DNA of 64,000 nucleotides from NCBI RefSeq assembly GCF_057098645.1, contig NZ_CM169472.1. One strand, 5' to 3'. Positions 24,001 to 27,000 of the stretch are shown here, one piece after another (within the stretch, counting starts at the first letter, position 1; each line of letters begins with the position of its first letter). The position numbers are program-made.

Positions 24001-27000
24001 TCCACCATCATTGACAGATCGCGACGGTAAGCGTTCAACGTATTTTCAGCCAGATTTTTTTCCAGCCACAGAGCATCAAGAAACTGCTCGATGCGTGCCA
24101 GATCCTGTTTCACTTGCGCCCCTTATGGTCACTCATTTGATCCATTATGCCTTATTGTGCCGTGACTAAAGCGATTCTGATACACTAGCCGCAAAAGCCA
24201 CAGCAGAATCGAGAAGCTTACGTTATGAATATGGGTCTTTTTTACGGTTCCAGCACCTGTTACACCGAAATGGCGGCAGAAAAAATCCGCGATATTATCG
24301 GCCCAGAACTGGTGACCTTACATAACCTCAAGGACGACTCCCCGAAATTAATGGAGCAGTACGATGTGCTCATTCTGGGTATCCCGACCTGGGATTTTGG
24401 TGAAATCCAGGAAGACTGGGAAGCCGTCTGGGATCAGCTCGACGACCTGAACCTCGAAGGTAAAATTGTTGCGCTGTATGGGCTTGGCGATCAACTGGGA
24501 TACGGCGAGTGGTTCCTCGATGCGCTCGGTATGCTGCATGACAAACTCTCGACCAAAGGCGTAAAGTTCGTCGGCTACTGGCCAACGGAAGGATATGAAT
24601 TTACCAGCCCGAAACCGGTGATTGCTGACGGGCAACTGTTCGTGGGTCTGGCGCTGGATGAAACTAACCAGTATGACCTTAGCGACGAGCGTATTCAGAG
24701 CTGGTGCGAGCAAATCCTCAACGAAATGGCAGAGCATTACGCCTGATGTCACTGACGGCTTAGCACATATGCTTTGCCGTCATCTTTATCTTTGCGTCTC
24801 TTGTTGCAACAATATCCGCCGTAAATCCCGCCATTCGGCTTCGTCCATGCTGTCGGCTGCCAGCCATAAATGTTGCCGTTTACCGCCATCAGAACGTAAA
24901 CGCAGCATCATGCCGCTCTTAATCATCCACGGTGCTTTGACGATGCTCCACTCCTGCCCTTGCCAACGCAAACGCCCGTCCATCAACAAGCGAATTTCCC
25001 CCTGGCGAGCATTAATACGCCGCTGGCTGCGAACGCAATCAAACACCACCAGCGAAAGTAACACCATCCATAACGGGGTGTAACTGAGCGGCCAGGGCAT
25101 GAGTAAAATAACAGCGGCAACCAGCCCATGAATCAGCAAGGAAAGCCACTGTGCGCGCCAGGAGACGCGCAAATCAGATTGCCACAGGACCACGTTCCCG
25201 GTTCCGTGTCTGGATGAGTCGGACCATCATTTCCAGTTCTGCATCGGCCGGTTTACCGTGATTCATCAGCCAGTTAAACAGGTCTGGATCGTCACATTCC
25301 AGCAGACGAATAAAGATGCGTTTTTCGTCATCGCTTAAGCTGTCGTACTCATGTTCGAAAAACGGCATGATTGAAATATCGAGTTCGCGCATACCACGGC
25401 GGCATGCCCAATGAATGCGGGCTTTGTTGTTAATGTCCATCTTCTTCCTGTCTCACGAAAATCCAGTACCCCGCTATTGTAACGTGTTTTTCGACTTCTT
25501 TTACGGGAATATCAGTAAACACAATCGCGATCGCGAAATTAATTCACAACAATTCAAGGGCTTCATTTTTTTGGAAGTCGCCTCGCAGAAGGCACAGATC
25601 GCGTAGTGAAAGCACTTGCATTGCCTCATAGCTCTTTTACCATTAGTTATTAATACGCCGTTAAGCAACTCAGGACTCTATTATGGCTTTTACACCTTTT
25701 CCTCCACGTCAGCCTACGGCTTCTGCCCGTTTACCGCTGACGCTGATGACGCTTGATGACTGGGCGCTTGCCACCATTACTGGCGCGGACAGCGAAAAAT
25801 ATATGCAGGGCCAGGTGACAGCAGATGTCAGCCAGATGACAGAAAATCAGCACCTGCTCGCCGCCCATTGCGACGCCAAAGGTAAAATGTGGAGCAATTT
25901 ACGTCTGTTCCGCGACGGCGATGGCTTTGCGTGGATTGAACGGCGCAGCGTGCGTGAACCGCAGCTGACTGAACTGAAAAAATATGCGGTGTTCTCTAAA
26001 GTGACCTTCGCGCCAGACGACGAGCGTGTGCTGCTTGGTGTTGCCGGTTTTCAGGCGCGCGCCGCGCTGGCCAAGCTCTTTAGTGAACTACCTTCGAGAG
26101 AAAAACAGGTAGTTAAAGAAGGCGCGACCACTTTGCTATGGTTTGAACACCCGGCAGAACGTTTCCTGATCGTAACCGATGAAGCTACTGCCAATATGCT
26201 GACCGATAAACTGCGCGGTGAAGCGGAACTGAACAATAGCCAACAGTGGCTGGCATTAAACATTGAAGCGGGTTTCCCGGTGATTGATGCCGCGAACAGC
26301 GGGCAGTTTATCCCACAGGCGACCAATCTCCAGGCGCTGGGCGGTATCAGCTTTAAGAAAGGCTGTTATACCGGACAAGAGATGGTGGCGCGAGCAAAAT
26401 TCCGTGGTGCCAACAAACGCGCGCTCTGGTTGCTGACAGGTAGTGCCAGCCGACTGCCGGAAGCTGGTGAAGATTTAGAGCTGAAAATGGGCGAGAACTG
26501 GCGTCGCACCGGTACGGTGCTGGCTGCGGTAAAACTGGAAGATGGTCAGGTCGTGGTACAGGTCGTCATGAATAACGATATGGAACCGGACAGCATCTTC
26601 CGCGTGCGTGACGATGCGAATACATTGCATATCGAGCCGCTGCCGTATTCGCTCGAAGAGTAAATCTCTGTGTCGCATCAGGCATTTATCGCCTGATGCG
26701 ACGCTGGCGCGTCTTATCAGGCCTACAAAGGCATACCCATTACGCCTGCCCAATATACAAATAGATCGCCAGAAAGTGGCACACACTACCGCCGAGCACG
26801 AAGCCGTGCCAGATGGCATGGTTGTATGGAATGCGTTTGCAGACGTAGAAAATCACCCCGAGCGAATAAACCACGCCGCCTACCGCCAGTAAGGTAACGC
26901 TGCCCGCCGCGAGCTTAACTGCCATTTCATAAATTACCACCAGCGACAGCCAGCCCATCGCCAGATAAGTCACCAGAGATAAAATTTTGAATCGGTGCGC

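Follow-up and report, generated by a model that had tools for sequence, protein, structure and literature searches.

Is the overlapping gene pair sdhE–ygfX, also known as cptB–cptA, a housekeeping operon or a toxin–antitoxin module? This question is raised by a stretch of 64,000 nucleotides (nt) from contig NZ_CM169472.1 of assembly GCF_057098645.1, the whole of which is called here the window. A sequence-only reading had placed at positions 24786–25440 an intact pair of genes sharing 20 nt, one for SdhE, an assembly factor of flavin adenine dinucleotide (FAD), and the other for the small membrane protein YgfX, and had added that the pair has been described as toxin–antitoxin-like. The locus itself is already known and belongs to the textbook core operons of E. 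coli. Based on the data collected below, we assign a probability of about 0.82 to the view that sdhE–ygfX is a chromosomal housekeeping operon, in which YgfX acts at the membrane as a partner or modulator of SdhE rather than as a dedicated toxin.

The operon and its two products

The six-frame list of open reading frames (ORFs) and the raw sequence both gave two ORFs on the minus strand with a union of exactly 24786–25440. Their 20-nt overlap appeared in the same list and is also annotated in a RefSeq O145 chromosome and in K-12, while RefSeq annotation, Pfam, NCBIfam and the comparison with K-12 all agree that the genes are sdhE and ygfX. According to megablast, the DNA between 24600 and 25700 does not differ from that of several O145:H28 chromosomes (100% identity), which gives a hint as to the origin of the window. 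For these chromosomes RefSeq lists fldB(+), ygfX(−), sdhE(−) and ygfZ(+), with coordinates and overlap as found here. The wider surroundings (23217–27399), comprising xerD(−), fldB(+), ygfX(−), sdhE(−), ygfZ(+) and trhA/yqfA(−), represent the standard E. coli core block. In K-12 MG1655 (b2895–b2898) the arrangement is the same with respect to gene order, strand relation, start and stop codons, the 20-nt overlap and the flanking genes fldB and ygfZ. The difference amounts to 12 nucleotide substitutions in a 936-nt alignment, none of which changes a protein: four are coding, all of them synonymous and located in third positions, and the remainder is intergenic. A scripted comparison found both products identical to those of K-12, b2897 (SdhE) and b2896 (YgfX). 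Since the coding changes are all synonymous and the proteins equal to those of K-12, both genes are intact, and the earlier claims about position, overlap, gene identity and integrity hold. The pair is an ordinary, known and intact E. coli core operon, identical to the reference at the protein level.

The assignment of SdhE as a FAD-assembly factor is supported at several levels. The protein matches Pfam family Sdh5 (PF03937; 5e-26, 90.8 bits against a cut-off of 27) and, over residues 1–88 of 88, the NCBIfam equivalog NF008130 “FAD assembly factor SdhE” (1e-59, 198.4 bits against a cut-off of 120). The RGxxE motif, described as important in PMC8621075, is represented by RGMRE at residues 15–19 and is also present in SdhE of the distant loci L007, L008 and L011. 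SdhE is identical in 88 of 88 residues to the crystallised E. coli YgfY (PDB 1X6I) and in 87 of 87 to the SdhE chain of the SdhA–SdhE complex 6C12; its residues 6–84 match the FrdA–SdhE complex 6B58. The E. coli ygfY mutant is viable, has lost succinate dehydrogenase (SDH) activity and barely grows on succinate (PMC5293155). In Serratia, flavinylation of both SDH and fumarate reductase (FRD) depends on SdhE, a protein that interacts with YgfX and whose gene shares a transcript with ygfX (PMC5042078). As published genetics, biochemistry and crystal structures show, SdhE is a small five-helix protein that binds the flavoprotein subunits SdhA of SDH and FrdA of FRD and promotes covalent attachment of FAD, by which complex II is activated.

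YgfX matches Pfam family Cpta_toxin (PF07254; 6.6e-50, 169.1 bits against a cut-off of 27.3), which Pfam describes as “Membrane-bound toxin component of toxin-antitoxin system”. The match covers residues 2–131 (profile positions 1–132 of 133), and its beginning at residue 2 supports the annotated GTG start. No NCBIfam model matched YgfX, and searches of the PDB, with the single sequence and with the family profile, found no sequence relatives. Two adjacent hydrophobic segments (Kyte–Doolittle 19-residue windows above 1.4 over residues 12–54) agree with the hairpin seen in the AlphaFold model, and YgfX can be called a small membrane protein, as was claimed before. The model was built on a 43-sequence alignment and has a mean predicted local distance difference test score (pLDDT) of 92.8, with pLDDT above 90 in the hairpin helices. 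It comprises an N-terminal strand (2–8), transmembrane helices 12–31 and 36–62, six strands (65–112) and a C-terminal helix (118–134). The architecture of PF07254, that is two N-terminal transmembrane helices and a C-terminal soluble domain, is therefore present according to both hydropathy and the model. The predicted fold suggests that YgfX may be a membrane-anchored PH-like domain; a Foldseek search of the model against the PDB gave no significant match.

Transcription of the operon would proceed on the minus strand, starting in the intergenic region that it shares with ygfZ. The ygfX gene begins, in the +1 frame, with a GTG placed 20 nt before sdhE ends, so that YgfX would be made from the sdhE messenger. 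The product would be an inner-membrane protein of 135 amino acids (aa), with a two-helix hairpin in the membrane and a beta-rich domain in the cytoplasm. We infer that it is most likely a membrane-bound partner or modulator of SdhE, with which it was reported to interact in Serratia.

Conservation of the junction and of the pair

The shared 20 nt hold the final six sense codons and the stop codon of sdhE, and ygfX has its first 6–7 codons there. When the junctions of four genera were aligned, a block of 26 nt (columns 63–88) covering the ygfX start and the sdhE stop remained invariant, while the codons flanking this block varied normally at wobble positions. Wobble variation that is found only outside the invariant 26 nt is the pattern that dual coding predicts and, as far as the alignment can tell, the overlap is under dual constraint. 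Pairwise ratios of nonsynonymous to synonymous substitution rates (dN/dS) in the four genera ranged within 0.02–0.06 for sdhE and 0.07–0.15 for ygfX, these values being rough because dS is near saturation. Judging by these ratios both genes are under purifying selection, and the low dN/dS together with the strong Pfam and NCBIfam matches means that sdhE and ygfX are not chance ORFs.

The distribution of the locus within E. coli was estimated by megablast of the segment 24600–25700 against 5,426 complete genomes. The locus was found in 5,425 of these, at a median copy number of one. A single genome had no match, and another had the locus twice, once on a record with a plasmid label. The entire block recJ–dsbC–xerD–fldB–ygfX–sdhE–ygfZ–trhA, including the 20-nt overlap, recurs in Salmonella, Klebsiella and Enterobacter. 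Among mobile replicons, matches to YgfX were limited to 12 of the 72,556 records of plasmids and to 2 of the 50,697 of phages. Those plasmid matches that were inspected proved to be chromosomal segments with full synteny, essential genes included, and hence mislabelled pieces of chromosome. The ygfX-matching “plasmid” records H11–H13, H18 and H21–H22 of PLSDB are really chromosomal, some being 4–5 Mb in length. NZ_CP114989.1 (L003), a 51-kb “circular plasmid” of Enterobacter hormaechei, carries recJ, prfB, lysS, xerD, dsbC and fldB in chromosomal order and is probably a misassembly or mislabelling. Carriage of ygfX by mobile elements was therefore rejected, the plasmid and phage matches being either such mislabelled pieces or a fragment of 1.5 kb. 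In its behaviour the locus resembles a housekeeping operon passed on by vertical descent, not a mobile toxin–antitoxin module.

The YgfX family is small: when 1.84 billion cluster representatives were scanned exhaustively with phmmer, only 133 clusters reached E ≤ 0.001. Four distant homologues with 28–39% identity are all encoded directly downstream of a gene of the Sdh5 family, from which they are spaced by a 20- or 26-nt overlap or by a 30-nt gap (L008); at those loci that have enough flank, ygfZ lies divergently upstream. In Proteus mirabilis (L004 1912-2908) sdhE and ygfX are adjacent, without overlap and with a gap of about 307 nt, which means that the 20-nt overlap is not universal in Enterobacterales; by comparison of the sequences it is a feature of Enterobacteriaceae and some of their relatives. 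The Proteus gap holds an ORF of 64 aa (L004 2272–2466). The order sdhE→ygfX was kept in every locus examined, with identity of YgfX decreasing from 100% to 28%, and this persistence indicates an ancient, vertically inherited linkage.

These data also bear on the assumption that YgfX is functionally unrelated to SdhE, so that their co-transcription is incidental and the overlap arose neutrally as the genome was compacted. Such an explanation finds some support in the loss of the overlap in Proteus (307-nt gap) and in L008 (30-nt gap), and the literature consulted describes no phenotype of ygfX in SDH-related assays (PMC5042078). However, adjacency of the two genes is preserved over the whole range of YgfX identity, even where the downstream neighbours differ (L008), physical interaction between SdhE and YgfX has been reported (PMC5042078, PMC3985639), and in Serratia the loss of either gene lowers transcription of the prodigiosin operon (PMC5042078). 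A purely incidental association therefore seems highly improbable to us.

The toxin–antitoxin label

The toxin–antitoxin-like description of the pair goes back to CptB/CptA of Masuda et al. 2012 (cited in PMC8132199, PMC3985639 and PMC11205521), and with its status being contested the cautious wording of the sequence-only reading was appropriate. Taken literally, the label implies a genuine type IV system, where CptA (YgfX) is a membrane toxin inhibiting polymerisation of FtsZ and MreB, and CptB (SdhE) is an antitoxin that acts in flavinylation as a moonlighting or secondary function. In papers citing Masuda et al. (PMC8132199, PMC11205521), overexpression of YgfX in E. coli is said to stop growth, to produce lemon-shaped cells and to inhibit FtsZ/MreB polymerisation, all this being relieved by YgfY. 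The Acinetobacter (A. baumannii) pair overexpressed in E. coli gave similar growth inhibition, which was neutralised only at high induction of the antitoxin (PMC8132199). The Pfam name of the YgfX family, an entry for cptAB of E. coli strains in the toxin–antitoxin database TADB (PMC11205521) and the bicistronic layout with overlapping genes, shared with many toxin–antitoxin modules, point in the same direction. Two adjacent co-transcribed genes, as expected for type IV, are indeed found here, overlapping on the same strand, and co-transcription was reported for the pair in Serratia (PMC5042078) and in Shewanella (PMC8621075).

Nevertheless, the evidence of toxicity comes entirely from plasmid-based overexpression of a membrane protein, and other studies disagree with it. 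In the hands of the Fineran group the system gave no toxin–antitoxin phenotype, yet the two proteins were seen to interact (PMC3985639); such direct interaction contradicts the definition of type IV, in which the partners do not interact. The Shewanella pair fails the criteria of a toxin–antitoxin system and shows neither toxin nor antitoxin behaviour: co-expression worsened growth, morphology did not change, and no interaction with FtsZ/MreB or between the two proteins was found (PMC8621075). A review of 2024 does not regard the Serratia and Shewanella homologues as bona fide toxin–antitoxin systems (PMC11205521). The proposed antitoxin has a well-established housekeeping function and structure of its own, and E. 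coli mutants in ygfY are viable (PMC5293155). Accessory, mobile or patchy distribution, which is typical though not defining for toxin–antitoxin modules, was observed neither in the E. coli, plasmid and phage data nor across genera: 5425 of 5426 E. coli genomes have the two genes as a core pair in synteny, typically in one copy, all inspected plasmid matches are chromosomal segments with the same synteny, and the pair is essentially absent from genuine plasmids and phages. The defence models of PADLOC matched neither SdhE nor YgfX, and a role in anti-phage defence was rejected on this ground. Thus, the toxin–antitoxin label of sdhE–ygfX, although published, reflects a reading of overexpression data that is disputed, and a true type IV module at this place is, in our opinion, unlikely.

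For a housekeeping operon with YgfX as a partner of SdhE, growth arrest and lemon-shaped cells would most simply be an effect of overexpression. Several points should be weighed against this reading. Besides the observations of Masuda et al. and the Acinetobacter experiments described above, deletion of ygfX in Serratia had no discernible effect on swimming, which was reduced by deletion of sdhE (PMC5042078), and no loss-of-function phenotype ties YgfX to flavinylation. Proteus and one other lineage (L008) keep sdhE and ygfX apart, from which it follows that the overlap is not essential to the SdhE–YgfX partnership. Finally, translational coupling is a putative feature, and the Shine–Dalgarno-like sequence before the GTG of ygfX is weak. 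A weak signal of this kind combined with a GTG start suggests that translation of ygfX is probably low and coupled to that of sdhE.

A more detailed scheme may be put forward as tentative, which we hold to be rather less probable than not. YgfX would be not a toxin but a membrane-anchored “split” PH-like protein with the hairpin inserted at the PH beta1–beta2 loop. It might dock SdhE at the inner membrane beside the SdhCD/FrdCD anchors, thereby organising or gating flavinylation of complex II in space, while strictly conserved linkage together with dual coding in the overlap would set the SdhE:YgfX ratio and the effects on FtsZ/MreB would be overexpression artefacts. Independently of this scheme, automated “toxin” labels (Cpta_toxin in Pfam, cptAB in TADB) should not be taken to indicate that a toxin–antitoxin module or mobile element is present here. 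YgfX is conserved, and its predicted PH-like membrane-anchored model together with the tight linkage to sdhE may offer modest new leads on its physiological role.

Surrounding signals and comparison with known systems

Features of the locus are collected in Table 1. The scan of the 242-nt region between sdhE and ygfZ revealed no consensus sigma-70 promoter, so the start of the operon can only be presumed to lie there. The hairpin between the convergent genes fldB and ygfX is stable on both strands (−23.1 kcal/mol, z −5.5 on the plus strand; −20.7 kcal/mol, z −4.4 on the minus strand) and is likely a shared bidirectional terminator of fldB and ygfX. A T-rich tail follows it only on the plus (fldB) strand, and its role as a terminator for ygfX is to be taken as putative for this reason. 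Two more terminator-like sites inside ygfX were dismissed, their number being equal to chance expectation. A structured RNA was also rejected: the only Rfam match, to the small RNA RT-4 at 25739-25844 in ygfZ, reached 25.9 bits against a gathering threshold of 73.5 (E = 0.09) and is almost certainly due to chance. Antisense and alternative ORFs at 24622–25083 (+), 25415–25606 (+) and 24983–25129 (−) had no Pfam support.

Fused SdhE–YgfX ORFs of 166–217 aa containing both Pfam domains occur in public metagenome and SRA assemblies (P0002, P0003, P0005, P0008, P0013, P0022). A programmed +1 frameshift producing such a fusion was considered and discarded, as the junctions all differ and the clusters consist of only 1–2 sequences. 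Indels arising sporadically, or errors of assembly, in the overlap or ahead of it seem the likelier cause.

Table 1. Positions of the sdhE–ygfX genes, their coding segments and adjacent signals in the window
Feature	Position	Strand	Description
sdhE (ygfY/cptB) coding sequence	25174..25440	−	88 aa, ATG start, TGA stop; FAD assembly factor for SdhA/FrdA
ygfX (cptA) coding sequence	24786..25193	−	135 aa, GTG start, TAA stop; small inner-membrane protein
sdhE/ygfX dual-coding overlap	25174..25193	−	20 nt, sequence GTGGTCCTGTGGCAATCTGA
Invariant junction block GGAACGTGGTCCTGTGGCAATCTGAT	25173..25198	−	26 nt, covers ygfX start and sdhE stop; unchanged in four genera
Codons of the SdhE RGxxE motif (R15-G16-M17-R18-E19)	25384..25398	−	motif search, residue 15
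Codons of the predicted YgfX transmembrane helical hairpin, residues 12–62	25008..25160	−	hydropathy and AlphaFold model
Codons of the predicted YgfX soluble beta-rich domain and C-terminal helix, residues 65–134	24792..25001	−	PH-like in the model
sdhE–ygfZ divergent intergenic region	25441..25682		242 nt; presumed sdhE-ygfX promoter region
Shine–Dalgarno-like sequence AGGAAGAAG	25441–25449		directly 5′ of the sdhE ATG
−10-like TACAAT	25476–25481		35 nt upstream of the sdhE ATG
Hairpin between convergent fldB and ygfX	24753..24782		in the 39-nt intergenic gap

SdhE shares with the SdhE/Sdh5/SDHAF2 factors of complex II flavinylation a full-length family match, the RGxxE motif and the very sequence of the crystallised E. 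coli protein; no difference from this family was found, E. coli SdhE being its bacterial type member. For YgfX the nearest structural comparison is the PH/Ran-binding superfold. Here likeness concerns the predicted model of YgfX and not membership in the family: there is no sequence similarity (7–18% identity), the Foldseek match is not significant and, unlike in this superfold, the first strand of YgfX is split from the others by the transmembrane hairpin.

As an operon, the locus can be compared with sdhEygfX of Serratia sp. ATCC 39006 studied in the Fineran laboratory. There, too, the two genes form a co-transcribed pair, SdhE flavinylates SDH and FRD, and the membrane protein YgfX binds SdhE, whereas control by FlhDC, RsmA and RsmC, like the prodigiosin phenotype, is a finding specific for Serratia. 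The type IV system CbtA/CbeA (YeeV/YeeU) of E. coli resembles sdhE–ygfX in the two-gene operon, in the reported targets FtsZ and MreB and in lemon-shaped cells appearing upon overexpression. CbtA/CbeA resides in cryptic prophages and is multi-copy. In contrast, sdhE–ygfX belongs to the core genome, in one copy and in conserved synteny, and its proposed antitoxin SdhE has an independent function in an essential pathway and has been reported to interact with YgfX.

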